From IMG/VR virus record IMGVR_UViG_3300028832_000111: a stretch of DNA of 64,000 nt; one strand, 5' to 3'. The first letter of the stretch is position 1, and each line of letters begins with the position of its first letter. Under the pieces are notes generated by a model, which saw nothing but the letters and a program-made list of their open reading frames with translations, was not told the origin of the DNA and did no database searches. This DNA is from a virus. Taxonomy: Duplodnaviria > Heunggongvirae > Uroviricota > Caudoviricetes. Of the stretch, positions 5,400 to 23,097 are shown one piece after another. A program made the position numbers and the translations under genes.

Positions 5400-5690
5400 A
5401 CCTATTGCCGAAACTCTGGGATCAATTTGTAAGTATTTTTCCGTTAAATATCTATATATTTAAGTTATTATATAATTAACTATCTATGTATATATACAAT
5501 AATAACCTGTATATATACTACAATATTGTATAATCTTTCTTTATAACTTACTATATATCAATCAATTAAACATAAGTTAAATATACAAATATTGGCATTA
5601 TATCGGATTATTTTTGTAATTTTATAGTGTCGGAAAGGTGTTTCCGATATGCGCACTTTGACACTATTTTATTAACTCTTAAATATTACA
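5400..5690. promoter_or_regulatory. strongly AT-rich tract, possible DNA-unwinding element. Also contains nested palindromes at 5625-5670.
   Basis: About 290 bp of roughly 80% A+T between the primase module and the first plus-strand gene. Includes atagtgtcggaaaggtgtttccgata...gacactat. Confidence 0.45.
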
Positions 5691-5693
5691 ACT

Positions 5694-6278
5694 ATGCAAG
5701 TAAACAAAAATCTTGTTGATTACCTTTATTCAGGTATTTCAACCGTTGAACTTGAAACACTGGTAACAAGTATTTCAGTTAAGGAATTGAGAAAAGCAAA
5801 CGCAAGTAAAACCACAATTAGCAAACTACTTGCAAGTATTGACAACGAAAACGCAAGTATTGAGGCCGAAAACCTTAATAAATTATCCGCTTGTTTTGCG
5901 GATTCTTTCCGTTCCGCTCCTTTTATGGCAACAGAAAAATATCTGTTTTTGAGGGTGTTTGCAAAAGTGAGGAAAGCAACAAACAACTTTACAATCACTT
6001 TTCAAAGTGAAGCGGATACAAACACAATAGGAAATACGGAAAGCGGTTTAACTCCATACCGTAAAACTACAATTTCGGCCGCTGGCCTCCGTACTTGTTT
6101 TAATAGTTACGATATATTCAGGGATGAAGTTGCACGGACTGCACGCAAGCAGGCAAATGAAAAGCAATTGCAAAGAGCGTCCGCAAGTCTGGCCGCAAGT
6201 CTTGGAATAGACGCAAGTCTTTTAACTCCTGAACTGTTGGCAAAATTTGGTTTTACAAGAGTTTGCAAAGTTGATTAA
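5694..6278 (+). CDS. hypothetical protein (194 aa), first gene of the plus-strand early array
   Basis: ORF preceded by a conserved-motif copy (ttaactcttaaatattacaactATG) and followed by an intrinsic terminator. Confidence 0.65.
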   Translation: MQVNKNLVDYLYSGISTVELETLVTSISVKELRKANASKTTISKLLASIDNENASIEAENLNKLSACFADSFRSAPFMATEKYLFLRVFAKVRKATNNFTITFQSEADTNTIGNTESGLTPYRKTTISAAGLRTCFNSYDIFRDEVARTARKQANEKQLQRASASLAASLGIDASLLTPELLAKFGFTRVCKVD

Positions 6279-6297
6279 ATTTTAACCCTGTTTGATA

Positions 6298-6331
6298 GGT
6301 GGCGGATACTTTCCGCCGCCTATCTTTTTTG
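6298..6331 (+). terminator. rho-independent terminator
   Basis: ggtggcggatactttccgccgcc hairpin followed by tatctttttt. Confidence 0.65.
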
Positions 6332-6930
6332 TGCCTATCTGAAAGGATTTGCCTATCAGGTGGGCGCTTGGATCATACCCTTTTTGCAACCCAGGTGAGC
6401 TGCTTATCTGGGCGCGGTTGGATTCCGTGAAGGGTGCAAGTTAATAAAACGTACATTGACATATTGGACGCGAATATTTCCGGCTGTTCTGCAAAGAGCT
6501 GGCGGATAGCGGGCGCTGTTCCCGTGCGGTCCTGTACCGGTGCTTTTGCGCTGCGTGCAGGATCAGGGCGCACTCCGTTTGAAAGTGATATAGGCAAGTA
6601 GTGAAAGATGAAAGCCGAAACAGTGAGTAATCGGAGCGCGGATTATACGGCAGCGTTGAACATCATCCCTAATCAGCGGATTATGCGGATTTGCGTATCG
6701 TTACGCGAATCCCTGGGCTTTCCTCGCGGACCGGAATTTATTTCCCTTTTCCGCCTGAGAATAATTCCGCTGGAATCTCCGGTAGGCCGGAGCTGTGGGA
6801 TTCAGAGTTATGGTTAAACTTAGAATCTATTGGAAAACGCCTGAGAGATGAAAGACACAGGACAGGGCGGAACGGCTGAAAGATTGCCGGTCCGCTTACG
6901 AATATTGTTTAACCTTAAATACGCGCAACT

Positions 6931-7029
6931 ATGAAAGAATTTATCAGGTTATCCTCCAAGCTGCTTGAAAGACTGGGAGCGGAGGAGATGATCGAATGTC
7001 TGTGCGCAGAAGATTCTCTTGAACTATGA
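6931..7029 (+). CDS. small ORF (32 aa) translationally coupled (ATGA) to the next gene
   Basis: Motif attgtttaaccttaaatacgcgcaactATG sits immediately upstream. Product MKEFIRLSSKLLERLGAEEMIECLCAEDSLEL. Confidence 0.35.
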   Translation: MKEFIRLSSKLLERLGAEEMIECLCAEDSLEL

Positions 7030-7382
7030 ACGCAGACAAGGAAAGACGGGAGTATGAGCGCCAGCGTGCCTGGGATTATATGATGCAGCTCCCTCGTGAC
7101 GTCCGCAACCTCAAGGTTTACGGACGTGACTTTCCCGAATACCTGAAATCGGCCGAATGGATGCAGACACCGGAGGCCCGCAAGGTATCGATGAAAGTCT
7201 TTGATTTTATGTTTGACTTCTGCGCCCTTAAGAAAGATATGGCGCAGTACCGATGGTCAAAGGAATTTCTGGCGGAGAACGGAGTGGATTTCACATCCGC
7301 CAAGAAGCTGTTCTTCGCGATCCTCCCGACACTGCCGGAACAGGACCGCGTGGTCATTCTGTCACGTATGGGAAATGCGTGA
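7026..7382 (+). CDS. hypothetical protein (118 aa)
   Basis: ORF with protein-like composition. Confidence 0.6.
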   Translation: MNADKERREYERQRAWDYMMQLPRDVRNLKVYGRDFPEYLKSAEWMQTPEARKVSMKVFDFMFDFCALKKDMAQYRWSKEFLAENGVDFTSAKKLFFAILPTLPEQDRVVILSRMGNA

Positions 7383-7413
7383 CGGAAACTACAACTCTAT
7401 AGATACTACGATT

Positions 7414-7554
7414 ATGAAAGAGAAGATTTTGGATTTGCTGTGCAAGAAAGTGCACTGGCTCGATGAGGACTACACGATAGGCGGGATCATCGTCACGATG
7501 TCCGGCTGTGTCCTGTTCATACTCCTTTGCGGATTGCTTGAAGGTCTGTCCTGA
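7414..7554 (+). CDS. small membrane protein (46 aa)
   Basis: Motif aactctatagatactacgattATG upstream. C-terminal hydrophobic segment GGIIVTMSGCVLFILLCGLL. Represents the motif-associated start inside track ORF 7201..7554. Confidence 0.45.
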   Translation: MKEKILDLLCKKVHWLDEDYTIGGIIVTMSGCVLFILLCGLLEGLS

Positions 7555-7556
7555 GA

Positions 7557-7915
7557 ACGCGGAATCAGTACGTAAACCAACGGCTGAGGATACGTCACGC
7601 GGATGACAGACAAAGCGATTCGCGGCCATAACTGCGGATAGTACGATAATTATCCGCAGTACGAAAACTGACGGAGAGTACGGAAACCCTACGCAGTACG
7701 ATTATCACCAACTCTAAAATACTACGATTATGAAGACGAGAATCTACAGGAGAATCCGCAACAGGAGTTATGAGCTGACCGCCAAGAGTACGGGAAAGAA
7801 CCTGACGATGTACGGACAGTTCGGAAAGTACGATAAATCATACTCCGCTGCGTGAAAATGATTCCGGCTGTCCTGACGGACTACCGGAGTACGATAAACC
7901 ATACTTAAATACTAC
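7557..7915. repeat. dispersed repeat array AGTACG(A/G)(T/A)AA, about 9 copies
   Basis: cagtacgtaaacc, agtacgataattatccgcagtacgaaaactg, gagtacggaaacc, cagtacgattatc, gagtacgggaaag, aagtacgataaatc and gagtacgataaacc. Confidence 0.55.
7730..7855 (+). CDS. possible 41 aa ORF inside the repeat array. May be noncoding.
   Basis: Motif-led ATG, but the sequence is dominated by GTACGA repeats. Confidence 0.25.
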   Translation: MKTRIYRRIRNRSYELTAKSTGKNLTMYGQFGKYDKSYSAA

Positions 7916-7919
7916 GACA

Positions 7920-8582
7920 ATGAGAGAAGTGAAATGTAAGCTCTACAAGTTTGAGGAGCTGAGCGAAGAGGCTCAGAAGAAAGTCATTGACCGCGAGCGT
8001 GACGACATACAGCGGTTACACATAGACGCCTGGGAATCGGAATACCGCGACTCGCTGAAAGAGTTCTGCGAGCTGTTCGGTATTGACGTGAGACACTGGG
8101 AGGTGGATTCCTGTTCCTACGATTACCGGTTCCGTTTCAAGAATGACGTCTATGAGAGAGACGCGGAGGACGTGACAGGAAAATATCTGGCGCGTTTTAT
8201 GCGTGACATCCACAAGTACGTATTCAAAGGGAAATATATCTCCGCGAAAGGACATCTCGGAGAGGACGGCAAGTGGGTGTACGGCAAGAGCAAGAACTCC
8301 AAGATCCTGCTCGTGGACTACGACTGTCCGCTCACCGGATTCTGCGGTGACAACTTCATCCTGCATCCTGTCTATGAATGGTTCAGGAAACCCGACTACA
8401 ACAAATCCCTGTATGATTTGGTGGATGACTGCCTGGACAGTTTCTTCAAGGAAAGGCGGGATGATATGGAATCCGGAGGAAGTGACGAGTACGTCCGCGA
8501 GGAGCTGCTGATTGACGAGGACGAGATCTACTGCGAGGACGGAACGCTGTTCCGTGGTATATGCGAGCCGGACGCAGCGTGA
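7920..8582 (+). CDS. hypothetical acidic protein (220 aa)
   Basis: Motif-led ORF. Confidence 0.7.
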   Translation: MREVKCKLYKFEELSEEAQKKVIDRERDDIQRLHIDAWESEYRDSLKEFCELFGIDVRHWEVDSCSYDYRFRFKNDVYERDAEDVTGKYLARFMRDIHKYVFKGKYISAKGHLGEDGKWVYGKSKNSKILLVDYDCPLTGFCGDNFILHPVYEWFRKPDYNKSLYDLVDDCLDSFFKERRDDMESGGSDEYVREELLIDEDEIYCEDGTLFRGICEPDAA

Positions 8583-8644
8583 CTTTTGTGTCAGGGAATA
8601 CGGAAATTCCCTGACGCGCCAACCAACTCTTAAACTATACAACT

Positions 8645-8944
8645 ATGAAGAAAATTGAAGTATTATGCTGGGGTATCGAGCATATAGCCCAGAACCACGA
8701 TTTCGGCTATTCAACCGAGGATTGGGAAACAGAAGGAGAAGTATGCATCTACGGAGGCTGTAACGTACCGACATTATCTGACGTGCAGATGCTATGTCAG
8801 GACCTGGGTATTCCGAGGGAATACATAGAGGACAGCGACTTCGGCATTGACGTGTGGATTCCCGAGAATTGGGACAAGGACGCCGAATACAAGGAAACCG
8901 GTATGGAGATGTGGAAACGCTACGGATTCGTCATCGGCAACTGA
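8645..8944 (+). CDS. hypothetical protein (99 aa)
   Basis: Motif-led ORF with an upstream hairpin gtcagggaatacggaaattccctgac. Confidence 0.7.
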   Translation: MKKIEVLCWGIEHIAQNHDFGYSTEDWETEGEVCIYGGCNVPTLSDVQMLCQDLGIPREYIEDSDFGIDVWIPENWDKDAEYKETGMEMWKRYGFVIGN

Positions 8945-9008
8945 CACTATTTCCGGCAGGAGGAGAGATAACTCCTGTCGGAGCGAATAACTCTTTAATG
9001 CTACGATT

Positions 9009-9329
9009 ATGAGAAGGACCAACAAGAACCTGAATGTCATCAATGTCATTCACGAGAATGGCGAGATAGAGGAGCTGGCCACGTATGAGGGCAAATATTC
9101 CGCCTATTATGCGCTTACTCTCTATATCTGCCAGCGATACAAACGTGATTTCCTCAACAAGCGCAACCTTGAGTGGGCGCGTGAGAAAATCATCGTGGGG
9201 ATGTCCAAGAAGACGTGTTTCTTCTATGAGGGAACGGATGTCATCTCGTGCTGCGCTCCCGAGCTGAAACTCTATGACGAGGGAATCGGCAGCTGCGAGC
9301 TGGAGTACGAACCGGCCGTCCCTGCGTGA
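9009..9329 (+). CDS. hypothetical protein (106 aa)
   Basis: Motif-led ORF with an upstream hairpin ccggcaggaggagagataactcctgtcgg. Confidence 0.7.
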   Translation: MRRTNKNLNVINVIHENGEIEELATYEGKYSAYYALTLYICQRYKRDFLNKRNLEWAREKIIVGMSKKTCFFYEGTDVISCCAPELKLYDEGIGSCELEYEPAVPA

Positions 9330-9432
9330 CGAAAGGATAACAACAATCTTAGTTGTGTATTTAAGTGTTTTTCGGGTGCAGCGGGATGGAATCCGGCTGC
9401 GCCTACTATGTTTAACCTAAAATTGAAACGAT

Positions 9433-9822
9433 ATGGAAATACTTAAGGATTTGATGTTCCACGGCACCAAGGCGCTGGAGGAAGTTGTGAAGAATTTCAT
9501 CCGTCTGCATCAGGGCGAGAAAGGATACATAGACACCCACGTGAAGGAAGACGGAGCAACGGACAACATCTGGACGTACAGGTTCTGCTCTGACGGCAGC
9601 TTGGACATTATGTTCCCCTATGAGGTCATCGCGGTGCGCGTCAAGAACGACACCCTGCAGATTCTCCCTAACACCGACAAGATAAACCTCAACGAGCCGG
9701 GCGAGGTGTTTGACGCCAACGATTCCACGTGGGATCCCGATTGGTTCGCCTTCGGTGACGGAGATTACCTGTGCTATGAGACGCTGGGCTCTATCGCTGA
9801 GAGCATCGAGCAGTATGTATGA
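9433..9822 (+). CDS. hypothetical acidic protein (129 aa)
   Basis: Motif-led ORF. Confidence 0.7.
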   Translation: MEILKDLMFHGTKALEEVVKNFIRLHQGEKGYIDTHVKEDGATDNIWTYRFCSDGSLDIMFPYEVIAVRVKNDTLQILPNTDKINLNEPGEVFDANDSTWDPDWFAFGDGDYLCYETLGSIAESIEQYV

Positions 9823-9883
9823 ATCATTCCGGAATCGTGCGAGAGCGGTTCCGGAAACCAAGTTTAACTCAAATTCTATGATT

Positions 9884-10324
9884 ATGAAATACTCAAGATT
9901 CGTAAAGTCAGGGAAGAAGGTTTTCCATACTTGGTTCAAGGAGGTTGTCACTATTGACGAGATTCTTGACCTGTGCAATGAGAACCAGCCCACCAAGAAG
10001 GAGATTGACCAAACCCCGAAATTAGTGAACGTCTATGTCGTGGATTCGGACGGACAGACATTCCTCTGTGATCCGACCGATTTGCAGCCGTGGCGACACG
10101 TGGATGACCTGTGCTACAATGAACTGAAGAAACTGCGCGGTCAGATTTGCCTCGGCTCGTGCTACGTCAGTGACTACAAGAACACTCTCGGAGTGGAGGC
10201 GAAGGAGGTCAGCCAATACGCGGACGGATTCGGTGAGGCTATCGGATGGGATGAGGCGAAGGATACGGCTGAGAACTTCGCCCTCTATTGTCTCGGAGAG
10301 TTGGATATGGAGGAATCAGCGTGA
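9884..10324 (+). CDS. hypothetical protein (146 aa)
   Basis: Motif-associated ATG inside track ORF 9710..10324. Product MKYSRFVKSGKKV... Confidence 0.6.
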   Translation: MKYSRFVKSGKKVFHTWFKEVVTIDEILDLCNENQPTKKEIDQTPKLVNVYVVDSDGQTFLCDPTDLQPWRHVDDLCYNELKKLRGQICLGSCYVSDYKNTLGVEAKEVSQYADGFGEAIGWDEAKDTAENFALYCLGELDMEESA

Positions 10325-10474
10325 ATTTCCCGCAATTTTTGCCCTACAAACGATTTTCTCCCTCTCAGCGGTAGATTTTCTCACGAGGGTATGAGAAATT
10401 TCCTTACACGTCAAATCTCAGGGAATAGGAAATATTCTCTGGGGTGCTATTGTTTAACTCTTAATTCTACGATT

Positions 10475-10735
10475 ATGGATATCTACACAATGGAGCAATG
10501 GGAGAAAGATAAGACTCTGAACGTCAAAGTCGGTCAGTTCATATCAAACGAAGTGTTCTGGGAACTGTGCGGTGCGTTACCGCCTGCAACTTGGGAAAGA
10601 GGAATCTTCCAGCCGGGCGAGGCGTATTCTCACGATTGGAATCGCAATTGCGCACTCTATCAGACTTTCAAGAAAAACGGAACAGGCGACGCAGAATATC
10701 AGTATGTCGGACTTAAGCCGCTTGGCGAATGTTAA
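10475..10735 (+). CDS. hypothetical protein (86 aa)
   Basis: Motif-associated ATG inside track ORF 10391..10735. Confidence 0.6.
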   Translation: MDIYTMEQWEKDKTLNVKVGQFISNEVFWELCGALPPATWERGIFQPGEAYSHDWNRNCALYQTFKKNGTGDAEYQYVGLKPLGEC

Positions 10736-10796
10736 GGTTATGGGAGAGCGGAATCTCCCGTAACCGCCACTATGTTTAACCTTAAATTCTACAACT

Positions 10797-11789
10797 ATGT
10801 GTAATCCAAAAGTTTATGTCGGTACTTGGGGTAAGTACAACAACGGCAGCATCGCGGGCGGATGGGTTTCTCTCGCGGATTGTGAGAACTACAATGCGTT
10901 TATCTCGAAGTGCAAAGAACTGCACAAGAACGAGAGCGATCCGGAGTTTATGATTCAGGACACCGAGGATTTCCCTGACGGCCTCTCCTGTTCGGATTGG
11001 CTGGGTGAGGAGGATTTCAACGACATCAAGGCGGCTCTGAAAACCGACGGGCCTGACCTGAGAATCGTAGAATATTCAGAGAAATGCTTCGCGGTTGTGG
11101 GTGACACGTTCACTTACCGCGAGCAGCTGAAGAAACTCGGGGCTTGGAAGTTCAACAAGTTCCTCTCCTGCGGAGCGGGCTGGCTGTTCAATAACGACAA
11201 GCGCGAGGCTGTGGAGGCGTTCATCGGAGGCGGAGCATCACATATTACCGCCAAGGTCGAGAAGACTGCCAAGAAGGACGAGAAGTTCATCACGTGGCTC
11301 AGCGAGTTTCTTGACACCGAGTGCAAAGATGACAAGTCAGACCGCGACTACTACAGCAAGGGATGTGTCGGAGCGGTGAAGATTGACGGACATTTCTACT
11401 TGATAACCAAGCCGTCAATAGACAACCGCTTCTGCTTCCATGACGAAGGACCGGACTATAAGTTCTATTGCGAGCTGATGAAAGACGAGAGTAAACTCCG
11501 TCAGTATTTCATCCAGCAGAACGAAAGCGCCTTCACTCGCTCCATTGAGAGCATCGAGAAGGGTGAGACACTGCGTATCGCTGAGACAGGTTACAAGAAC
11601 AAGCTCGATTTCCTTATCGGCAGGTCGTGGTACAACAACGAAGGCCATGAGGCGAGCAAGGAGGAACGCGCCCTCATCCTTGACGGTCTGAAGTTCGGGC
11701 TGGAGAAGTTCCGCAAACGTCTCGACGCCTACCTCAACCGCTACGGGGTGAGCAAGATCCACACTTGGACTTACTGGGCCGATGCGTGA
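10797..11789 (+). CDS. ardA: ArdA-like antirestriction N-terminal domain protein (330 aa)
   Basis: N-terminus KVYVGTWGKYNNGSIAGGWVSL...EFMIQDTEDFP matches the conserved ArdA start (VYIANLGKYNEGELVGAWF...EYAIHDYELP in Tn916 ArdA). Acidic overall. Confidence 0.6.
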   Translation: MCNPKVYVGTWGKYNNGSIAGGWVSLADCENYNAFISKCKELHKNESDPEFMIQDTEDFPDGLSCSDWLGEEDFNDIKAALKTDGPDLRIVEYSEKCFAVVGDTFTYREQLKKLGAWKFNKFLSCGAGWLFNNDKREAVEAFIGGGASHITAKVEKTAKKDEKFITWLSEFLDTECKDDKSDRDYYSKGCVGAVKIDGHFYLITKPSIDNRFCFHDEGPDYKFYCELMKDESKLRQYFIQQNESAFTRSIESIEKGETLRIAETGYKNKLDFLIGRSWYNNEGHEASKEERALILDGLKFGLEKFRKRLDAYLNRYGVSKIHTWTYWADA

Positions 11790-11849
11790 CATTATCTGCG
11801 TGGAGAGCAAAATCTCCATGCGGAACTGTTTAACTATAAATTACAGACT

Positions 11850-12053
11850 ATGGAAGAAAAAACAACGTGTTCACCCGTGATGTTCAAAGCATTCCTCAGA
11901 TGTATAGGCAGACGTTACAGACGATGCGGCTACATGACGGCTAAGTCATACGCCTTTAACTACATGGAGCGTTACCGCCTTGAAAATCTAATGAGAATGC
12001 AAGTCTATGGATTATTAAGAAAACTGTATCTGATATGGAAAAAATCAAAGTGA
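11850..12053 (+). CDS. hypothetical basic protein (67 aa)
   Basis: Motif-led ORF. Confidence 0.5.
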   Translation: MEEKTTCSPVMFKAFLRCIGRRYRRCGYMTAKSYAFNYMERYRLENLMRMQVYGLLRKLYLIWKKSK

Positions 12054-12496: not shown

Positions 12497-12547
12497 CAGG
12501 ATTCCGGGGAACGACATCCCCGAATCCGCAAACCAAAACTTATAATT

Positions 12548-12781
12548 ATGAATAATCTATATTACATCGAGACGCGAAGGAACTCTGTGCATGAGGTTCT
12601 TGAGGTATTGCAAAAAAATGGGTTACATATAGAAGCTATAAGGGCTCATTATATTGATTACAAACGAACTATGCACGATGGCGAATTGATAATGTGGACT
12701 GAGGGTGATAAATATCCCTGCTGGGTTCATCGTTCGCAAGAGGATGTTGTCAGGAGATGCGGGATTAAGGTGGATTATTGA
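12548..12781 (+). CDS. hypothetical protein (77 aa)
   Basis: ORF with a partial motif (cttataattATG). Confidence 0.5.
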   Translation: MNNLYYIETRRNSVHEVLEVLQKNGLHIEAIRAHYIDYKRTMHDGELIMWTEGDKYPCWVHRSQEDVVRRCGIKVDY

Positions 12782-12868
12782 ACATTCGTTCAAACTCAAA
12801 TCATCCTGCCTGGGTATGAAAACTCAGGCGGGAGCAACCATTATGTTTAACTCTAAAAAATTACAACT

Positions 12869-14432: not shown

Positions 14433-14444
14433 ACTTTTACGGAT

Positions 14445-15908: not shown

Positions 15909-15959
15909 AGGATAAGGCGGAATAACATTCGCCTGTCCACCAACTCAAAACAAAAGATT

Positions 15960-16190
15960 ATGGAGAAACTGACAAAGAAAGACCTGCATCTTGCGGGTAG
16001 CGCAAAAGATCTGATGGACCTTGGATTGCTGGTCATCGACAAGATGTACTGGGAGACATTCATAGCCAACAAGAGCGAGAGGTATGAATCGCGTCTCGGA
16101 CAAGTCTATGACATCAGCAACGCGAGAGGGCTTGTAACTGACGCGGTGGCTATCGTAGGCAAACGTGCATCCTTCTATTGGATCAAGTGA
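15960..16190 (+). CDS. hypothetical protein (76 aa)
   Basis: Motif-led ORF. Confidence 0.6.
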   Translation: MEKLTKKDLHLAGSAKDLMDLGLLVIDKMYWETFIANKSERYESRLGQVYDISNARGLVTDAVAIVGKRASFYWIK

Positions 16191-16249
16191 CTATCATCTT
16201 CTGCCGGGCGACACCGACAGGAGATGCCATTAACTCAAAACGTACAGCT

Positions 16250-16606
16250 ATGCAGAAATTCGAGAAATTAACCAAACCGGAAGAATTGGACTTCTTCCAG
16301 ATTTATGAAGAGCATGGAGTAAAGTTTATCCATATCTTCGGTTACATCTACCACAATGAGGATTACTGGGCCAATATGGAGTGCGATTTCTTCATCGAGA
16401 AATTGGAGGATTTTGTACGCCACATGTCAGAGAACAAAGACTATGTAGATGACAGCTACTGCGATTTCAGCCAATATCAGGATGACCATTCTGAGGAAGA
16501 AATCCTTGAGACTATCAACACGTATTTTGACGGCAAGCCAGCCGATTATCGTCTTAGTTTTGCCAACGTTACAACAGATACCCCTTGCGGTAACTATGTA
16601 AGTTAG
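16250..16606 (+). CDS. hypothetical acidic protein (118 aa)
   Basis: Motif-associated ATG inside track ORF 16178..16606. Confidence 0.65.
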   Translation: MQKFEKLTKPEELDFFQIYEEHGVKFIHIFGYIYHNEDYWANMECDFFIEKLEDFVRHMSENKDYVDDSYCDFSQYQDDHSEEEILETINTYFDGKPADYRLSFANVTTDTPCGNYVS

Positions 16607-16667
16607 CACCCGGACCATTTTATTGGAAACAATAGAATGGTCACTATGTTCAACTAAAACCGAAACT

Positions 16668-16874
16668 ATGTACAACAGAAAAGACAGAAATTACAGAATC
16701 AAGGCTAACCACCATGACAGGACTTACACCATCAGGGTATATGAGAAAGGCAAGGTAATAGCCAAATATAGGACCAACGTTCAGGGTAAAGGATGTATGA
16801 CCGATGATTGGACAGAGGAGGATATTCGCAACTATATGAGCCGTTATCCCGACGATTACTATGAGGTCAAGTAA
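16668..16874 (+). CDS. hypothetical basic protein (68 aa)
   Basis: Motif-associated ATG (MYNRKDRNYRIK) inside track ORF 16623..16874. Confidence 0.6.
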   Translation: MYNRKDRNYRIKANHHDRTYTIRVYEKGKVIAKYRTNVQGKGCMTDDWTEEDIRNYMSRYPDDYYEVK

Positions 16875-16939
16875 GTCAGTGTGGCAACGAGCAGCTTCCT
16901 TGCCACATACCAATTGTTTAACTCAAATACTCTACAATT

Positions 16940-17485
16940 ATGCAAAGACAAGTTTATGAAACGATGATTGAGGCCGCCAAACGCCAGATGATTAGTGATA
17001 TGCTCAACCGCCTGGGTATGGGAGTTTGCCATAAGTTCAAGAAGCCCGTACAAATCTTCTTCCTTGAAGGTGAGGTATGCGCCAAGGAATTGTGTCATTC
17101 CGTTATGGCTGATTCTGACGGAGAACTACGATTCGAGGTATCTACGGAAGTATCCGGCAAGGAGACCGAATGGGTGATTGGCGACAGCCTTCTAAACTAT
17201 CTCGGTGAATCTCTCATAGACGTATGGGCTACGCTTGACAAGGAACTCAGTGAACCAAAAGCATCTGCTCTCAGCGGTTTAGCTGAAAGTAAACTCGAAG
17301 AGCAGGTAACTGTCATCTGCTACAACGACACAGAGGTAATGACCAGACGAGCCGCAATGGAGAAATACTTCGATTGTATGAGAAATTCCGAAGGTCCTGA
17401 GCATAGACGTTATGAGACGGTCTTCTTCCAACTGCTTACAGGAAGGATGACAGCCGATGACCAGATTCCCTTCTACGAGATCTGA
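16940..17485 (+). CDS. hypothetical protein (181 aa)
   Basis: Motif-led ORF with an upstream hairpin gtgtggcaacgagcagcttccttgccacat. Confidence 0.7.
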   Translation: MQRQVYETMIEAAKRQMISDMLNRLGMGVCHKFKKPVQIFFLEGEVCAKELCHSVMADSDGELRFEVSTEVSGKETEWVIGDSLLNYLGESLIDVWATLDKELSEPKASALSGLAESKLEEQVTVICYNDTEVMTRRAAMEKYFDCMRNSEGPEHRRYETVFFQLLTGRMTADDQIPFYEI

Positions 17486-17543
17486 CTATCCATGCGCTCT
17501 TAACCGGGCGCAAGGATACAACTTAACTCAAATAAATACGATT

Positions 17544-18044
17544 ATGAAAGCAAGTGACTTAATGACATCAATGAACAGAGCTGCGGATGAGGTGGTTAAA
17601 CAACTCATGGAGTATGTTCGCGAGAAAGGACATAAGCCCACGCCCGGTGACATCAAGGAGTTCGGATTGGATTTGGACGGAGCAGAGGCAACTCACGTAT
17701 TGTCCTTCAATGAGAGAGCCGGATGTGAAGTTATCAAGATGAAGAGTCTCGTCAATCCTGAAATCTCCATGAGTGACATTGACGATAACGTTTATGACCT
17801 TCTCGAAGATGAATTTACCCACCGTTCTATCCGTTGTATCTACATACGGAAAGAAAATGACGGCTCTGAGCATCTTATGTGCTACCACTACGTCAATCCG
17901 GGCATAATATACACGGATAATCCGGATGATGCAGATGATTGGCATGACCGAGTGGCAAGCCTCGGCTGGGTTACAATAGAGCGAATCATAAGATACATCA
18001 ATGATAACCCAACCTGTCTGATACCGAAGGAGATGATGCAGTAA
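17544..18044 (+). CDS. hypothetical protein (166 aa)
   Basis: Motif-associated ATG inside track ORF 17457..18044. Confidence 0.7.
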   Translation: MKASDLMTSMNRAADEVVKQLMEYVREKGHKPTPGDIKEFGLDLDGAEATHVLSFNERAGCEVIKMKSLVNPEISMSDIDDNVYDLLEDEFTHRSIRCIYIRKENDGSEHLMCYHYVNPGIIYTDNPDDADDWHDRVASLGWVTIERIIRYINDNPTCLIPKEMMQ

Positions 18045-18087
18045 AATGCATCTCTCCACCATGTAACTAACTCTTAAAACTACAATT

Positions 18088-18699
18088 ATGAAACATGAAT
18101 CATTTTACAAAGCGTATGCTGAAATAGCCGTAAAGGAACAAAGGGAATTGCGCAAGTGCCTGGAAAAGCTGGGAGGCAGTTTTACATGGAAGGATTCCGG
18201 TATAGAATACCCCATCATAACAGCCAGCATTGACGATTGCGAGTATGTAGGCGACGTAGATGTGATGAAAATATGGGTGGAGTCCAAAGGTAACATCCGT
18301 ATGTCAGTCAATCTGCATGACGGTTCTGTGTCAGACATTGAGATTGGACTCGGTGATGTACACTATTCGCACATTGATTTTATCATGGATTATCTGCCTG
18401 AGATAGAGGTCAAGGGAGAAGACGAAGTGCGTACATACACCTACAAGGAGATGGAGAATGCCGTACATCTGGTAGCAGACCTCGCTGAAGACATCGCCAA
18501 GATTGAGAAAAGCGGAAGTTACCCTTGGTTGGATTCCAGAGATAAAGCCGCTTACTTCATCAAGAAAGCTGTTGAATTTGAGAAGAGGTTGGGCGGCAAG
18601 GATGAAGACGAAGGCAACTATGACTACATCGAGGAGTTGGAGAAGTTCGAGAAAGAGGTTATGAATGAAATCATCGAGGACATTCCTCTTCCGTTCTGA
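18088..18699 (+). CDS. hypothetical acidic protein (203 aa)
   Basis: Motif-led ORF. Confidence 0.7.
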   Translation: MKHESFYKAYAEIAVKEQRELRKCLEKLGGSFTWKDSGIEYPIITASIDDCEYVGDVDVMKIWVESKGNIRMSVNLHDGSVSDIEIGLGDVHYSHIDFIMDYLPEIEVKGEDEVRTYTYKEMENAVHLVADLAEDIAKIEKSGSYPWLDSRDKAAYFIKKAVEFEKRLGGKDEDEGNYDYIEELEKFEKEVMNEIIEDIPLPF

Positions 18700-18763
18700 T
18701 TGTTTGGTGTCGGAGTGATATTCGACACCAAAGCAAATATGTTTAACTCAAAATTATATTATT

Positions 18764-19063
18764 ATGCTTTACAATTACAACGAACATCTCGATTACTGCG
18801 ACAAGCTGGAGATTCATGTAGTAGGAGAAGATAAGAACCGGGAAGTGCAGTTCTTTGACGGAATGCGCCTTGATCCGAACTCAATCCCCGAAGGCAAACA
18901 CATGTATCACACCAGACACAATGATGACGGGGACTGGAGTACACCCGTAACAGTTCAGAAGGAAGGTGCCGGTATCATGGTCAACTTCTGCGGTACGATT
19001 GTCACCGAAGAGCCTATCAACATCACTGAAGAGACGGAGATTGACTTCGTGAGCTGGATATGA
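18764..19063 (+). CDS. hypothetical protein (99 aa)
   Basis: Motif-led ORF with an upstream 11 bp-stem hairpin tttggtgtcggagtgatattcgacaccaaa. Confidence 0.65.
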   Translation: MLYNYNEHLDYCDKLEIHVVGEDKNREVQFFDGMRLDPNSIPEGKHMYHTRHNDDGDWSTPVTVQKEGAGIMVNFCGTIVTEEPINITEETEIDFVSWI

Positions 19064-19128
19064 ATCTACGATGCTGCCGGATGACACTGACAGCATCAGC
19101 TATTGTTTAACTCTAACACTACACTATT

Positions 19129-19560
19129 ATGGAAAAAGAAAACAAGAAACTGCTGAAGTTCGCCAACGAACAATTAAAAGAACGCGGTTATAAGCTAAGC
19201 GTCAAAGCTGAAGACAACACGTACCGCCTTGACATCTGCAATCTCAAGGGAAAGGTAATCGATAATTACGCGGATGGTTATTTCGAGGAAGAACTCCCCA
19301 ATCTGCTCAATGACGCATTACTCTGTTGTCTGATGAAGGAACCATTATCTCGTGAGCGCATCTATATCTTGGATAGCAATGCTGACATCCTTGACGAGAA
19401 AGAGTTTAATGAAATATCCGACAAGGAGATATTGGAGATGTACGATGCCGGTTCGGATTACGTGGATTGCTTCGAGGACTTGCACGATTTGGCGAGCGCA
19501 TGGAATGCAGAGGAAATATTCTATCCGACTCACTCCTACGCCCGTGTAATCAGGTCATAA
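19129..19560 (+). CDS. hypothetical acidic protein (143 aa)
   Basis: Motif-led ORF. Confidence 0.7.
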   Translation: MEKENKKLLKFANEQLKERGYKLSVKAEDNTYRLDICNLKGKVIDNYADGYFEEELPNLLNDALLCCLMKEPLSRERIYILDSNADILDEKEFNEISDKEILEMYDAGSDYVDCFEDLHDLASAWNAEEIFYPTHSYARVIRS

Positions 19561-19816
19561 AAAAAGAATGGATGCCAGCGAGACATCCATTTAGGCCCCT
19601 CATGCGCCCTAAGCTGAGGACGGAAACTAACTCTTTAAATATTGTAATTATGCGCATTACAATTTCCCTGAGAGTGTGGCACTTCACCCTGACTATAAGT
19701 CTTGGGTTTAGGTAAGTCCCGACATACGGACTGAACATCCGTTTTAGTTTCCACGTCACAAAGATATGAAAGTTTTTGTGACGGCAACAATTGTTTAACT
19801 CTTAAATCATACTACA
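19561..19816 (+). ncRNA. structured noncoding region with a motif copy and a 21-codon ORF (19650-19715). Possible small RNA or leader.
   Basis: Several perfect hairpins (aatggatg..catccatt, attgtaatTATGCGCATtacaat, gtcacaaa..tttgtgac) and the motif aactaactctttaaatattgtaattATG leading only MRITISLRVWHFTLTISLGFR*. Confidence 0.3.
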
Positions 19817-20296
19817 ATGGAACCGAGGATTATTAAAGGGCACATGTTTTTGTGCAAACAGGACATCAAGGGTTACTATCGCAAAGGACGGATTTACCTA
19901 TGTGATTTTGAGCCCGCCTACTCACAGAAGGAGAACTATACTCCCGGCAAATATGACTGTGGGTTTATAACCAATGACAAGATGAATGCAAGTCACGCCT
20001 GGCCATACCTTCCTGAAAAGAACGCAAATTGCCACGACCGATGGACTGATTTCTTCGTGGATCTGGGTGAGAAACCGAACGGATTGATTGTCATTCCCTA
20101 CAGCATCAACGATACCGTCAAATGGTATTGCCCTGATGACGGAAAGAATCACACATCCAAAATCACAAAGGTCGAGACTGAACTGTCCAACACAGGAGAA
20201 TTGGGTGTGACATTCTTTACCCGCATCAAGTTCAAGGGCTCATTAGAGACCGCTACATTCACAATGAAACACATACGTACTGCGAATCATTGGTGA
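19817..20296 (+). CDS. hypothetical protein (159 aa)
   Basis: Motif-led ORF. Confidence 0.7.
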   Translation: MEPRIIKGHMFLCKQDIKGYYRKGRIYLCDFEPAYSQKENYTPGKYDCGFITNDKMNASHAWPYLPEKNANCHDRWTDFFVDLGEKPNGLIVIPYSINDTVKWYCPDDGKNHTSKITKVETELSNTGELGVTFFTRIKFKGSLETATFTMKHIRTANHW

Positions 20297-20358
20297 TTTA
20301 TTCCTGCAAGTACGGAAATGCTTGCAGGGAACCACGTTTAACCTAAAAAACATCAATT

Positions 20359-20949
20359 ATGGAAACAAAAAACTACAACGAAAAAGTAAAGGAGCTCAAA
20401 GAGCAGGTAATCGCTGACATCCGCAAGGAGATGAAGAAAATGGGATTTGCGTGGACGTTCGAGACACCTATCATGATTGACGACCATGACGGCGAGGTAT
20501 TGCTGCAGGGTGTGGACCTAAATCCAATCGATAACGGTATCATCCTGCTCTTTGAAGACTACCAAGAAGAAGGCGAATACGTTATTCAGCATCCGGTAGA
20601 AGAGCTGATATTCATTCTCAAATCACTGCGCGAACAGTACGCCAAGACAGAGTATTCGTTCGTACCCGGGTATCATGAATATCACTTTATCAACTTAACG
20701 GGCGACATCCTACTTAACCTTAATGATCCGAACGACCATTGTTATGACAGCGACGGTAATCCTATTGAGGATTTTCAACAGCTCAAAGATGATATGCTCG
20801 ATGTCATCTCTGAGATTAGAGATGTTTTGGAAGCCGGGGACGAGGATCTTCATGGCAACACATTGGATATGTTCAACCAACTTCCCGAGGACGAGATTGC
20901 AGCGGAGATCATGGCACAAGCTCTCTGGAATGATTACATCGCCGAGTAA
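20359..20949 (+). CDS. hypothetical very acidic protein (196 aa)
   Basis: Motif-led ORF, highly D/E-rich, a possible DNA mimic. Confidence 0.7.
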   Translation: METKNYNEKVKELKEQVIADIRKEMKKMGFAWTFETPIMIDDHDGEVLLQGVDLNPIDNGIILLFEDYQEEGEYVIQHPVEELIFILKSLREQYAKTEYSFVPGYHEYHFINLTGDILLNLNDPNDHCYDSDGNPIEDFQQLKDDMLDVISEIRDVLEAGDEDLHGNTLDMFNQLPEDEIAAEIMAQALWNDYIAE

Positions 20950-21014
20950 CAAGAAGGTTATAGCTGTGGAAACGCAGCTATAATCGCCATTATGTCTAAC
21001 TAAAATGATTCGCA

Positions 21015-21167
21015 ATGAAAGAAGAGAAAACAACCCAGAAGAAGTACACCCAATGGAGGGTGTACCGCCGGGGTAAGGAGGAAATACTTTCAACCCCGAT
21101 TCCTATGACACCTGCAGATGCATTATTCCACTTCAAGGCTCATACGGTGCAGGCGGTCAGTAATTAA
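21015..21167 (+). CDS. small ORF (50 aa). Not in the ORF track.
   Basis: Degenerate motif ccattatgtctaactaaaatgattcgcaATG. Product MKEEKTTQKKYTQWRVYRRGKEEILSTPIPMTPADALFHFKAHTVQAVSN. Confidence 0.35.
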   Translation: MKEEKTTQKKYTQWRVYRRGKEEILSTPIPMTPADALFHFKAHTVQAVSN

Positions 21168-21200
21168 CAGGGTAGTAACTTAACTAATTGAGAAGTAACT

Positions 21201-21473
21201 ATGAGACTGAGGAAATTAGCCGCTGAGTATTTCAGCAACAGGGAACAGAAGAGCAAGACAGTGGGCTTCATGTCGCTTGAACAGTTCTTCCGTAAGCACT
21301 TCCATTCCATACGCCCGTCATTCGTAAAAAACGGCGTAGGAGCCACACGTGTGGGGGTTAAGAACTACGTCAGACTTAAATGTATCGTGGAAGATCTCGG
21401 TAAGATGGGAGTGATACGTGACGTGGATGAGGTGCTTGATTCTATCGACAACCTCGTTCAGCAACACTACTAA
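21201..21473 (+). CDS. hypothetical protein (90 aa)
   Basis: ORF followed by a terminator-like hairpin. Confidence 0.55.
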   Translation: MRLRKLAAEYFSNREQKSKTVGFMSLEQFFRKHFHSIRPSFVKNGVGATRVGVKNYVRLKCIVEDLGKMGVIRDVDEVLDSIDNLVQQHY

Positions 21474-21519
21474 TGTTAAATCCGTACATTAACTATGTTA
21501 AGGATTAACATCGCCATAC

Positions 21520-21549
21520 AAGGATAAGGGCGAATCCTTATCTTTGTGC
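21520..21549 (+). terminator. putative intrinsic terminator
   Basis: ggataagggcgaatccttatc hairpin followed by tttgtgc. Confidence 0.4.
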
Positions 21550-21720
21550 TAATTATTACATACGAACGCCGTGAGGCGCATAGTTGTAGTATTTAAAGAG
21601 TTAAACAGATGCGTACTCATTGACATGGGTGCGCATCACTTTTCCAAAGGACAAATCCCACGTCCTGGAGCTGATTGAGTGACATCAGCTGCTCCGCCAA
21701 TAATAACTCAAACAATCATT

Positions 21721-23097
21721 ATGGATTACACTTACAAGTTAGAACAGGTGCTCAGGGTTCATAAGATTGAACCGCTGAGCTGGAGAGTCACGAAAGGACC
21801 CAGCGTCACCCTGTATGAGTTCAGACCGGATATGGGTGTGAATATGACACGTGTACGCAGACTCGCTGATGAGTTTGCCTTGGCGGTCGGTACGGAGTCG
21901 GTACGCATCATGGGACCGCTCGCAGGCGGTACGATTGGCATTGAGGTTCCCAACTTCCAACGTCAGATAGTACACATGGACAGCGTTCTGCATCATGTCG
22001 ATTACGAGTCCTGCAGGATGGCACTTCCATGCGCCATAGGCAAGACGGTACAGGGAGAACTCTTCATCCGTGACCTCACACAGATGCCGCACCTGCTTAT
22101 TGCCGGTGCGACCGGTCAAGGTAAGTCGGTATGCCTGAACATGCTGCTGCTCTCACTGATGAGCAAGCGCACACCGGAAGAGATGCAGTTGGTGCTCATC
22201 GACCCCAAACAGGTTGAGCTCAACATCTACGCTCCTCTCTGGCACAAGTATCTCGCCGATGACATAGCCACGACCACAGAGGATGCTGTCGCTATCCTGC
22301 AGCGTGTCATTAACCTCATGGAGTACCGTTACACCCTTCTCTCGCAGAAAGGAGTACGTAACATCAAAGAGTATAATGACAAGCTCAACGGTGAAGACTA
22401 CATGCGTTACTGCATCGTGGTCATAGACGAGTATGCCGACCTTATTATGACAGCCGGGAAGGATATGGAGCGTATGATATGCCGTATCGCACAGAAAGCC
22501 CGTGCCGTCGGTATCCACATGATCATAGCCACGCAACGTCCGTCGGCGACCATCGTGACAGGAAACATCAAGGCGAACTTCCCGGTACGTATCGCGTTCC
22601 GCGTCGCATCGGGTATTGATTCGCGTGTCATCCTCGACCATACCGGTGCCGAGGACCTGATGGGTAAGGGTGATATGCTCTACTCAGACGGCATTGATGA
22701 CGTGCGCGTACAATGCGGATATGCAGATACGGAGTACATCGAGGATGCTATACTGCTCAACCTTGTCTGCAGAGGTACATTTACCGGTTCCGTGCTTGAC
22801 ATCCCGGGACAGGAGGATGCGCCATGTGTCACCGTTACTATCAAGGGACAACCCGAATGCCTCTTCCTGCAGGAGTCACAAGGCAGGACAGAGTTGACGC
22901 CACGTAACTTCGGTATGTTCCCCTTCCTTCTTACACGCCGTATGGCAATCGAGGACTTCCTCACGATGGTTGCGATAGGTGTCCTGGATAAGCCCACGGG
23001 CGAAGGTATGGATATGAGAGCCAGGATACTCATACGTGACCGTAAGGAGGTGCTGAGACGCTGTGAGGCGGCAAGAGCGGGTACACTGCGCCTGTAA
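21721..23097 (+). CDS. FtsK/SpoIIIE-family DNA-translocase-like ATPase (458 aa)
   Basis: Walker A LLIAGATGQGKSVCLN, Walker B VVIDEYADL and ATQRPS motifs. The start is the motif-associated ATG (MDYTYK) inside track ORF 21679..23097. Confidence 0.8.
   Translation: MDYTYKLEQVLRVHKIEPLSWRVTKGPSVTLYEFRPDMGVNMTRVRRLADEFALAVGTESVRIMGPLAGGTIGIEVPNFQRQIVHMDSVLHHVDYESCRMALPCAIGKTVQGELFIRDLTQMPHLLIAGATGQGKSVCLNMLLLSLMSKRTPEEMQLVLIDPKQVELNIYAPLWHKYLADDIATTTEDAVAILQRVINLMEYRYTLLSQKGVRNIKEYNDKLNGEDYMRYCIVVIDEYADLIMTAGKDMERMICRIAQKARAVGIHMIIATQRPSATIVTGNIKANFPVRIAFRVASGIDSRVILDHTGAEDLMGKGDMLYSDGIDDVRVQCGYADTEYIEDAILLNLVCRGTFTGSVLDIPGQEDAPCVTVTIKGQPECLFLQESQGRTELTPRNFGMFPFLLTRRMAIEDFLTMVAIGVLDKPTGEGMDMRARILIRDRKEVLRRCEAARAGTLRL

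Follow-up and report, generated by a model that had tools for sequence, protein, structure and literature searches.

The question raised by this locus is why some 30 small genes of a single phage should each be preceded by the same short arrangement, a hairpin followed by a conserved motif set against the start codon, and whether that arrangement acts on DNA or on RNA. The genes form a ~16 kb plus-strand block of about 35 small, mostly unknown open reading frames (ORFs), referred to here as the array, in a stretch of 64,000 nucleotides (the window) from IMG/VR virus record IMGVR_UViG_3300028832_000111. The array is divergent from a minus-strand operon that encodes a D5-type primase, with a 925-nt AT-rich spacer between the two. 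A sequence-only reading of the window had described an array of roughly 40 small genes, each led by one such unit, and at least 29 consecutive ATGs with the motif. The small-gene array was borne out, but the count was lower (~35 ORFs), the copy at 19650 leads only 21 codons and the series is not strictly consecutive, four or five ORFs (7026, 12035, 14445 and 21201) having no module and being overlapped by or coupled to the previous ORF. Overall, the results favour a composite boundary module that would act mainly on RNA, and between copies of which genes appear to be gained, lost and swapped.

Source of the window and its relatives

The window is part of a 107,074-bp contig, ERZ27256849:k141_4620388, whose genes include those for a large terminase, GH108 endolysin, integrase, RecT and RusA, together with a DnaB/Toprim primase-helicase, several DNA methyltransferases and the D5-type primase. 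The combination of terminase, endolysin, integrase and RecT, with a portal annotated in one related contig, indicates a temperate tailed phage, in agreement with the origin first assigned to this DNA. The names attached to relatives were Prevotella sp., uncultured Bacteroidales and Bacteroidaceae, and the source is predicted to be a temperate Bacteroidales (Prevotella-type) gut or rumen phage of ~107 kb.

Relatives were sought using the D5 primase as anchor. A total of 68 related loci were fetched, and family statistics were calculated for the 27 loci with enough sequence, comprising 258 units and spanning D5 identities of 42–86 %. An array of small same-strand ORFs upstream of D5 recurs in these 27 loci, with median spacers of ~50–70 nt and median hairpin free energies (dG) mostly between -11 and -22. 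The layout of hairpin and motif is thus a trait of the family. The closest isolated phage is the Bacteroides LoVEphage, with a D5 identity of just 31 %, in which an array of this kind was not found. No near-identical DNA was found in phage and plasmid collections, and the FtsK-like protein at the end of the array identified no relatives when used as anchor in IMG/VR. A search of IMG/VR with an exact motif 16-mer returned 112 single chance matches and no enriched contig.

Conserved motif upstream of the start codons

When the 70 nt upstream of each of the 31 listed plus-strand ATGs (5694–21721) were inspected, the motif was found in all 31, as had been claimed. Anchored on its AAC, which usually lies 18–20 nt from the ATG, the consensus reads c-TA-T(T)-GTTTAAC-(T/C)C-TTAAA-N(3-6)-TAC(G/A)A(T/C)T-ATG. 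A loose pattern for the motif matched the plus strand of the 16.2-kb array 25 times, compared with 1.8 +/- 1.3 times in shuffled sequence (300 shuffles, maximum 5), and matched the plus strand of the other 48 kb three times. Likewise, seven matches to the motif 16-mer with three or fewer mismatches were obtained against an expectation of 0.62. Enrichment of the motif was thus clear, but the description of its copies as near-identical was too strong, with GTTTAAC present in only 14/31 copies and TAC(G/A)A(T/C)T directly against the ATG in 13/31; in 17/31 units, TTAAC is followed by one to three pyrimidines and then by TAA or AAA. Weaker copies outside the array were found at the minus-strand ATGs 3010, 2177 and 43655, in addition to an inverted orphan at 21581. 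The copy at 43655 (minus strand) lies in a 30-nt gap with no hairpin, and that at 3010 (minus strand) shares sequence with the 3' end of the ORF before it, the TAA of GTTTAAC being the stop codon of that ORF.

Among the 31 copies, the frequency of A was 0.74, 0.87 and 0.94 at positions -13, -12 and -11 respectively, 0.77 at -6 and 0.90 at -3. In Flavobacterium johnsoniae, initiation is promoted by adenines at -3, -6, -12 and -13 within an A-rich region from -11 to -14, and ribosomes ignore the Shine–Dalgarno (SD) sequence (Baez et al. 2019, PMC6847099); SD-independent initiation in the Bacteroidia is also treated in PMC13000457. The conserved positions of the motif, locked to the start codon, coincide with the F. 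johnsoniae adenines, which favours a reading in terms of translation initiation. SD sequences are absent from the genes of this phage, and its non-array genes display the same A peaks in weaker form. The content of G over -24..-1 was 5.8 %, compared with 25 % for the region and 17.5 % upstream of non-array genes, and no G was found at -19..-13 in any of the 31 copies. As G is excluded even at non-conserved positions, this pattern fits selection against RNA pairing rather than a DNA-binding site. The 27 related loci showed a comparable profile, with consensus AAA at -13..-11, ATT at -3..-1 and 3–14 % G over -24..-1. The 3' 25 nt of the motif are very likely to form an SD-independent Bacteroidia translation-initiation region.

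The upstream part of the motif differs by lineage, being GTTTCACACTTAAAA in L129, TTATTAACC in L150 and L190, and TGTTTCACTTTAAAACTCAAAGATT in L195. A crude test for concerted evolution gave ungapped motif identities of 0.40 within and 0.39 between genomes; these being equal, lineage-wide homogenization of the motif is not claimed. A mini-ORF in TATGTTTAACTCTTAA was judged to be incidental.

Hairpins upstream of the motif

In most units the motif is preceded by a hairpin, consistent with the sequence-only reading. The segment from -75 to -20 had a mean dG of -18.1 kcal/mol, compared with -10.0 +/- 4.5 for random windows of the array. The contiguous stem has a median length of 9 bp, the median distance from hairpin end to ATG is 25 nt and 18/34 intergenic gaps measure 50–70 nt. 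Stems differ wholly between units, with a hairpin-region identity of 0.27. Hexaloops are present in 16/31 window units with the pattern R-Y-G-A-M-A (e.g. ACGGAA, GCGGAA, GTGACA and ATGACA) and in 114/215 hairpins of the family. Other lineages have TTAGTT, which occurred 22 times and mostly in one lineage, or GCAA within GAGCAATC.

The sense-strand fold was more stable than the antisense fold in 28 units and less stable in 7 (p = 6e-5), and the same bias was observed family-wide (189 vs 69, p = 5e-19). G-U pairs made up 65/482 pairs in sense folds and 37/440 in antisense folds. Between the window and the related locus L115, pairing was kept in 15/22 stem changes by switches between G-U and Watson-Crick pairs (p ~9e-4, for an expectation of 1/3). 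In these patterns the hairpins resemble structures formed in sense-strand RNA, and their loops are conserved. An Rfam scan of the window returned tRNAs only and no family for the hairpins.

Although strong, the hairpins do not have the make-up of intrinsic terminators, because a U tract is absent from the array units save for the terminator after gene 1. At least five T in the next 8 nt followed only 21/215 family hairpins, a U tract being absent from the other 194/215. True terminators composed of a hairpin and a T run are present in the same phages, directly after gene 1, and in the window only two T-tailed plus-strand hairpins flank the series of units, at 6294–6324 (after gene 1) and 21517–21548. 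The earlier observation that most hairpins have no U tract therefore held, while no support was found for the idea that they are promoter-like structures in single-stranded DNA (ssDNA).

In its left part, the array has six ORFs that terminate in GCG-TGA (Ala-stop), at 7380, 7853, 8580, 9327, 10322 and 11787 on the plus strand. These shared ends suggest that the conserved unit may start inside the coding 3' end.

Gene exchange between related arrays

The window and L115 are 92–99 % identical over most of the array, with a ~1.1-kb segment around the ArdA gene at ~81 %, and eight events were identified between them. At the 19129 unit, L115 has an extra cassette with GCTATTGTTTAA at both junctions, and at the 19817 unit it has two extra cassettes with the junction in the (A/T)TGTTT of the motif. 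The window cassette at 15696–15939 is absent from L115, with the junction in the AACTC of the motif. Two ORFs are exchanged exactly between motif/ATG and the next hairpin; in L115 a different ORF stands in place of ORF 10475–10735, between ATG and stop, and an unrelated 68-aa ORF in place of ORF 16250–16606. One insertion is joined at a stop codon. The genes inserted in L115 bear a GTTTCAC variant of the motif that is typical of another lineage, which suggests import from another phage. In an independent pair, L150 and L190, mosaic joints were again found at the hairpin, motif and ATG. L129, with a D5 primase 86 % identical to that of the window, has only two comparable array genes in common with it. 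The joins of gene gain, loss and swap thus fall inside the unit modules, and we consider modular shuffling at the units highly probable.

The positions of the junctions vary, which argues for homologous exchange rather than an integron-like site-specific mechanism. The integron-like alternative would act at the DNA level on attC-like cassettes, with the hairpins as folded ssDNA sites, GTTTAAC as core and the tyrosine recombinase at 23284–24126 as the enzyme. Indeed, GTTTAAC matches the string RYYYAAC, every cassette ends in a structure-conserved, sequence-variable palindrome and a 280-aa tyrosine recombinase and an FtsK-like gene stand at the right end of the array. However, the joins do not share a fixed crossover point: some lie within the motif, some between it and the hairpin, some just past the ATG and some at the stop codon. 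The near-perfect stems have none of the bulged bases seen in attC sites, no complementary GTTRRRY partner stands beside the stem, the conserved positions keep a fixed register with the ATG, and the cassettes all have the same orientation, each with its own initiation signal. Such a mechanism is considered highly improbable.

Transcription signals and the AGTACGA element

The Bacteroidetes primary-sigma promoter (TTTG at -33, TAnnTTTG at -7) is absent from the units, as the sequence-only reading had stated, and the median of 25 nt between hairpin and ATG does not fit such a promoter followed by a leader. TAnnTTTG boxes are no more frequent in the window than expected (31 vs 34), the sole plus-strand copy between 7.4 and 21.5 kb falls inside an ORF and matches of the sigma-70 type are at chance level (31 vs 29.8). 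A textbook Bacteroidetes promoter, TTTG-N19-TATCTTTG, was found upstream of the gene at 53750. A leaderless or TAnnTTTG reading of the units was rejected on sequence, as was an extracytoplasmic function (ECF) sigma reading, in which the AAC-CGA spacing would be 16–17 nt rather than the 12 nt observed. Among the genes annotated over 84 kb of the contig, none encodes an RNA polymerase or a sigma factor.

Gene 1, the first of the array, has a canonical TAnnTTTG(CA) box ~45–130 nt (commonly ~70–100 nt) upstream of its ATG in most relatives, and the hairpin or hairpins and the motif lie within the leader downstream of this box. The location of the motif inside gene-1 leaders and its overlap with an ORF end at 3010 (minus strand) suggest that it works inside transcripts. 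Of the two roles originally proposed, promoter or initiation element for a host without SD, the second is favoured, and a single dedicated promoter is not, since in gene-1 leaders the motif sits downstream of a host promoter.

The sequence-only reading had not described the shuffling of cassettes, the conserved hairpin loops or the promoter and terminator on either side of gene 1. A further element that it had not described, AGTACGA(T/A)AA, was strongly enriched in the relatives in a strand-specific and array-specific manner. GTACGA was found 357 times in sense and 33 times in antisense in the arrays of relatives, compared with 37 and 12 on the D5 side. AGTACGA is present in 114/258 family units, where it usually starts on the hairpin's last paired base and lies between -35 and -26 relative to the ATG. 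It is sometimes the loop itself, ACGATA belonging to the RYGAMA class, so that the string ACGAWA occurs either as loop or just 3' of the stem. In the window, seven AGTACGR copies are clustered at 7640–7894 on the plus strand, these being seven of the nine copies in the array. The element is absent from gene-1 leaders, in which TTCTTTGAAAT occupies the equivalent place.

One explanation for this element would make each unit a true analogue of the PeSL elements of T4-type phages, that is, a terminator hairpin followed by its own non-canonical promoter. AGTACGA(T/A)AA or cTATTGTTT would then be a -7/-10-like element, read by host RNA polymerase modified by an early phage protein, for example that of gene 1, and the mRNA leaders would be short and made of the initiation-region motif. 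The order of hairpin, AGTACGAWAA and initiation region parallels the terminator, promoter and ribosome-binding site of a PeSL, and AGTACGA is fixed in position, specific to strand and array, and absent from gene-1 leaders, where TTCTTTGAAAT takes its place. Gene 1 alone has a canonical promoter before it and a strong terminator after it, an arrangement expected of an immediate-early regulator, and after this terminator there is no canonical promoter in the window. Set against this, AGTACGA is missing from most window units, its copies being concentrated in the one cluster, and there is no likeness to TAnnTTTG, sigma-70 or ECF spacing. A conserved -33/-35 element is impossible because that position is taken by the variable hairpin arm, the hairpins lack the U tract seen in the real terminators of these phages and the gene-1 family does not co-vary with motif type (L195 vs L196). 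Promoters within each unit are considered unlikely; were they present, primary 5' ends would be predicted ~5–10 nt downstream of CTATTGTTT or AGTACGATAA.

A second explanation places the signal in RNA. The loop (RYGAMA, TTAGTT or GCAA by lineage) and single-stranded AGUACGA would be recognized by a dedicated protein, either one that binds RNA or an endoribonuclease, which would cleave a polycistronic RNA into monocistronic mRNAs protected by hairpins, or would repress or time the translation of all the cistrons. T4 RegB and RegA act on early mRNAs in such ways. The conservation of loops above freely varying stems, the occurrence of ACGAWA as loop or beside the stem, the sense-strand bias with G-U-compatible substitutions and the absence of AGTACGA from the monocistronic gene-1 leaders all point in this direction. 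No candidate protein was found, however, the Rfam scan gave no matching family and shared ancestry of the units could partly account for the conservation of the loops. We treat RNA sites of this kind as a tentative possibility, and one that would add to, rather than exclude, the favoured explanation set out below.

More generally, the conserved loop (RYGAMA and lineage variants) and AGTACGA might, though this is doubtful, constitute a novel cis-signal for a dedicated phage or host factor that controls ~30 early cassettes throughout the family. Such a factor might represent a new promoter specificity in Bacteroidia, or might be a protein that binds or processes RNA, and the combined signal may thus reveal a new regulator. 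AGTACGA is unexplained by the favoured explanation, and this is the main reason why the promoter and processing alternatives stay alive.

Proposed expression model

In the favoured explanation, the array would be a hyperplastic early accessory region assembled from standardized expression cassettes, with each cassette boundary formed by a composite module acting mainly on RNA. A stable sense hairpin would directly follow the upstream stop codon, its stem free to vary and its loop conserved (RYGAMA here). The ~25-nt G-free stretch against the ATG would serve as a strong SD-independent initiation region for Bacteroidia ribosomes, joining the 'Kozak-like' pattern of A at -13/-12/-11, -6 and -3 to a U/A/C-rich upstream part resembling the epsilon enhancer of phage T7. 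Transcription would most likely enter from one or more host-type promoters at the left end and pass the U-less hairpins to give a long polycistronic RNA, in which the hairpins would insulate each initiation region from adjacent coding sequence and stabilize or delimit cistrons. Homologous recombination between shared modules would insert, delete and swap ORFs with expression undisturbed, because the cassettes share the same short end modules. For the complete model, with polycistronic transcription and the hairpin as RNA insulator or stabilizer, our judgement leans slightly in favour.

Several observations weigh against this model. A plain 'unstructured landing pad' would leave unexplained the specific 5' half of the motif (cTATTGTTTAAC), the conserved hexaloops and the strand-specific AGTACGA, three features that point to a sequence-specific reader. 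The likeness to epsilon is confined to this lineage, relatives having TTCAC or GTAAC variants, and an upstream ATG (TATGTTTAAC) lies inside the motif in 8/31 copies, which is unusual for Bacteroidia initiation regions. At the left end of the array in the window, the candidate promoter is only a single TATTTTTG box, which no good -33 element accompanies. In addition, gene 1 is followed by a strong terminator with no canonical box between it and the array in the window, which leaves the entry of polymerase into the array unexplained; in several relatives a canonical box is present at this place. Each unit may also have a non-canonical promoter or an RNA-processing site.

Encoded proteins

The array proteins were, as first described, small and mostly unrecognizable, and many were acidic, with a net charge of -9 or lower in 16/36. 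Almost all are ORFans, the matches being limited to an ArdA N-terminal domain (10797), LPD11 (12035), LPD28 (18764) and one functionally unannotated PHROG. The proposal of an ArdA N-terminus at 10797 was upheld by a score of 42.2 bits to ArdA (PF07275; cut-off 27, E = 1.7e-10) and by a PHROG anti-restriction match (E = 1.6e-9). This match covers residues 6–65 on profile positions 1–60 of 155, with the other 265 aa unmatched, and is thus short of the full-length ArdA architecture. The proposal that acidic proteins are DNA mimics had been drawn from charge alone and was not supported, as the acidic array proteins gave no profile match and no match to PDB sequences. For gene 1, no homology or fold match was found, and no likeness to N, Q or sigma factors. 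The array probably comprises anti-defence or host-takeover genes, which would be expressed early.

When ArdA homologues were used as anchors, mostly other mobile elements without the hairpin and motif module were retrieved. The closest ArdA-N homologues outside the phage family (L116, L117 and L120–L123; 64–68 % identity) lie in other mobile elements, which encode polyvalent proteins of ~5300 aa, and the L120–L123 elements additionally carry PcfJ or PcfK genes and an integrase. Homologues in other mobile elements imply gene exchange between these and phages. One ArdA homologue led to a more distant phage (L118; ENA ERZ12302820 NODE_238) with a small-gene array and hairpins. In that array, a repeated CTCTATATAGAGNCTCTGA element, a weak TGTTTAAT-CTTAA motif and SD-like sequences at some starts were observed. 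Many relatives have, after gene 1, another gene of conserved position, encoding ~155 aa (L124–L187, array coordinates ~2400–3300; 32–79 % identity); it has no Pfam match and is absent from this window.

Coordinates of features and neighbouring genes

The features of the array and its borders are listed in Table 1.

Table 1. Features of the array and its flanks in window coordinates
Feature	Position	Strand	Content or basis
AT-rich divergent control region between D5 operon and array	4769..5693		no gene called; repeats, AT-rich palindromes
TATTTTTG, sole plus-strand TAnnTTTG (-7-type) box upstream of array	5609..5616	+	sequence match; candidate only
Gene 1 leader hairpin	5624..5667	+	fold, dG -14.7
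Gene 1 leader motif (TTTTATTAACTCTTAAATATTACAACT-ATG)	5664..5696	+	position weight matrix (PWM) score 30.0
Gene 1, 194 aa, basic	5694..6278	+	ORF
Intrinsic terminator after gene 1, 13-bp GC stem and T6	6294..6331	+	same layout in most relatives
GC-rich structured non-coding stretch, ~530 nt	6332..6865	+	dG -248 over 652 nt
Unit, hairpin 6867-6895, motif, ATG 6931	6867..6933	+	ORF 6931-7029 (32 aa), overlapped by coupled ORF 7026-7382
Unit, hairpin 7357-7387 (13 bp, overlaps stop of 7026-7382), motif, ATG 7414	7357..7416	+	ORF 7414-7554
AGTACGR repeats and small hairpins, motif, ATG 7730	7627..7732	+	ORF 7730-7855
Unit, hairpin 7861-7890, AGTACGATAA, motif, ATG 7920	7861..7922	+	ORF 7920-8582 (220 aa, phrog_10310)
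Unit, hairpin 8590-8615 (loop ACGGAA), motif, ATG 8645	8590..8647	+	ORF 8645-8944
Unit, hairpin 8951-8983, motif, ATG 9009	8951..9011	+	ORF 9009-9329
Unit, hairpin 9374-9404, motif, ATG 9433	9374..9435	+	ORF 9433-9822
Unit, hairpin 9827-9856, motif, ATG 9884	9827..9886	+	ORF 9884-10324
Unit, hairpin 10415-10445, motif, ATG 10475	10415..10477	+	ORF 10475-10735
Unit, hairpin 10736-10765 (loop GCGGAA), motif, ATG 10797	10736..10799	+	ORF 10797-11789, ArdA N-terminal domain
Unit, hairpin 11795-11824 (loop GCAAAA), motif, ATG 11850	11795..11852	+	ORF 11850-12053, overlapped by 12035-12496 (LPD11)
Weak-motif unit, hairpin 12499-12527, ATG 12548	12499..12550	+	ORF 12548-12781
Unit, hairpin 12804-12833 (loop ATGAAA), motif, ATG 12869	12804..12871	+	ORF 12869-13654
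Unit, hairpin 13662-13691 (loop ATGACA), motif, ATG 13721	13662..13723	+	ORF 13721-14068
Unit, hairpin 14202-14231, motif, ATG 14256	14202..14258	+	ORF 14256-14432, 12-nt gap, coupled ORF 14445-14690
Unit, hairpin 14692-14721 (loop GTAGAA), motif, ATG 14755	14692..14757	+	ORF 14755-15528
Unit, hairpin 15643-15687, motif, ATG 15711	15643..15713	+	ORF 15711-15908
Unit, hairpin 15910-15938 (loop ATAACA), motif, ATG 15960	15910..15962	+	ORF 15960-16190
Unit, hairpin 16195-16226 (loop GCGACA), motif, ATG 16250	16195..16252	+	ORF 16250-16606
Unit, hairpin 16613-16642 (GAAA loop), motif, ATG 16668	16613..16670	+	ORF 16668-16874
Unit, hairpin 16879-16908, motif, ATG 16940	16879..16942	+	ORF 16940-17485
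Unit, hairpin 17487-17518, motif, ATG 17544	17487..17546	+	ORF 17544-18044
Unit, hairpin 18029-18057 (overlaps stop of previous ORF), motif, ATG 18088	18029..18090	+	ORF 18088-18699
Unit, hairpin 18700-18736 (loop GTGATA), motif, ATG 18764	18700..18766	+	ORF 18764-19063 (LPD28)
Unit, hairpin 19070-19097 (loop ATGACA), motif, ATG 19129	19070..19131	+	ORF 19129-19560
Weak unit, possibly a decayed cassette	19591..19652	+	fold; 21-codon ORF 19650-19715
Unit, hairpin 19754-19783 (loop ATGAAA), motif, ATG 19817	19754..19819	+	ORF 19817-20296
Unit, hairpin 20301-20330, motif, ATG 20359	20301..20361	+	ORF 20359-20949 (196 aa, net charge -33)
Weak-motif unit, hairpin 20956-20985 (GAAA loop), ATG 21015	20956..21017	+	ORF 21015-21167; next ORF 21201-21473 without module
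Terminator-like hairpin (21517-21548) with T-rich tail, contains TATCTTTG	21517..21556	+	sequence
Inverted orphan unit, hairpin 21608-21637, full motif, ATG 21581, 10-codon ORF	21579..21637	-	PWM score 24.6
Last unit, hairpin 21666-21696 (loop GTGACA), weak motif, ATG 21721	21666..21723	+	ORF 21721-23097, FtsK/SpoIIIE-like

The control region contains repeated TTTGGTACAT and TTTTCAGG motifs and AT-rich palindromes at 4800–5040 and 5440–5600, and could be an origin or operator region. The structured stretch at 6332–6865 is kept only in the nearest relatives, with its middle part replaced in L115. The inverted orphan unit faces the end of the array and could be a decayed cassette or give a small antisense transcript.

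Two FtsK/SpoIIIE-type ATPases are encoded in the window. One, at the end of the array, adjoins the 280-aa tyrosine recombinase, the two together covering 21721–24126, and the other, at 48136–50223, is fused to a PD-(D/E)XK nuclease and lies beside RecT. A dense DNA-modification cluster on both strands (27549–37239) holds several N6/N4 methyltransferases, including two pairs on opposite strands, and a C5 methyltransferase, together with a PAPS-reductase-like protein, DUF5131, an HNH endonuclease and a PNK3P-type phosphatase. The minus strand at 62061–63260 encodes a homologue of adenylosuccinate synthetase (PF00709; phrog_1211), a family to which PurZ of 2-aminoadenine (Z-genome) phages belongs. 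Three phage tRNAs were predicted on the minus strand (41430–41501, 52252–52326 and 52481–52553), comprising Gln(TTG), Met(CAT) and one left without an assigned anticodon by ARAGORN ('ct').

Comparison with known systems

The initiation regions share with the 'Kozak-like' region of Bacteroidia the A at -3 and -6, the A tract at -11..-14, the absence of SD and a low pairing potential. They differ in being near-invariant and extended (TTGTTTAAC..., TACGATT), in recurring as ~30 tandem repeats and in having a hairpin partner upstream. The units would thus represent a natural library of ~30 (in the family, more than 250) predicted strong SD-independent initiation regions with insulating hairpins, and as such possible expression parts for Bacteroides and Prevotella, as well as a data set on the definition of start sites in Bacteroidia.

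A further likeness is to the leader of T7 gene 10, in which UUAACUUUAA is the epsilon translational enhancer (PMC9590205); its presence within the T7 leader sequence TTTGTTTAACTTTAAG was verified in the T7 genome. In both cases a hairpin is present, followed here ~20 nt before the ATG by TTGTTTAAC(T/C)(C)TTAA, which is nearly the T7 sequence. In T7, however, epsilon is followed by a strong SD, which is missing here, and the likeness is limited to this lineage. As relatives use TTCAC or GTAAC variants, it may be convergent, and it is offered as a lead.

The left end of the array resembles the pL-N-tL1 module of lambda and the host-takeover module of SPO1 in having a first gene with a host promoter, a strong terminator and then small early genes. 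It differs in that gene 1 is unlike N, Q or sigma factors and in the absence of a nut-like single site. The occurrence of ArdA-N, LPD11 and LPD28 among many small acidic ORFans is shared with anti-defence islands and leading regions, although the mobile elements with ArdA homologues lack the hairpin and motif module. The array would be a fast-exchanging pool of ORFan early proteins, with candidates for anti-defence screens. In the hairpin promoters of N4 virion RNA polymerase and of plasmid Frpo elements, a conserved hairpin is read by a dedicated polymerase or on entering ssDNA; the units described here have variable stems and belong to a double-stranded DNA tailed phage with a terminase and with no polymerase in the annotated 84 kb.

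The closest parallel to the composite units is provided by the PeSL elements of T4-type phages, which allow gene shuffling at shared connectors (Arbiol et al. 2010, PMC2839356; Comeau et al. 2014, PMC4122927). Both are short composite elements between small, mostly ORFan and non-essential genes in hyperplastic regions; both combine a stem-loop with expression signals conserved up to the ATG; and in both, insertions, deletions and replacements join inside the elements. PeSLs hold a strong sigma-70 promoter, an SD and an effective terminator, whereas the units here have no recognizable host-type promoter, no SD and U-less hairpins with conserved loops, and belong to a temperate Bacteroidales phage rather than a T4-like myovirus, with a host of a different phylum. 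By analogy, the units appear to be PeSL-like connectors adapted to an SD-blind host, in which a loop-conserved RNA hairpin replaces the terminator, a Kozak- or epsilon-like region replaces the SD and no promoter is recognizable. This would extend the idea of connectors for safe shuffling from T4-like phages of Proteobacteria to temperate gut and rumen phages of Bacteroidales.

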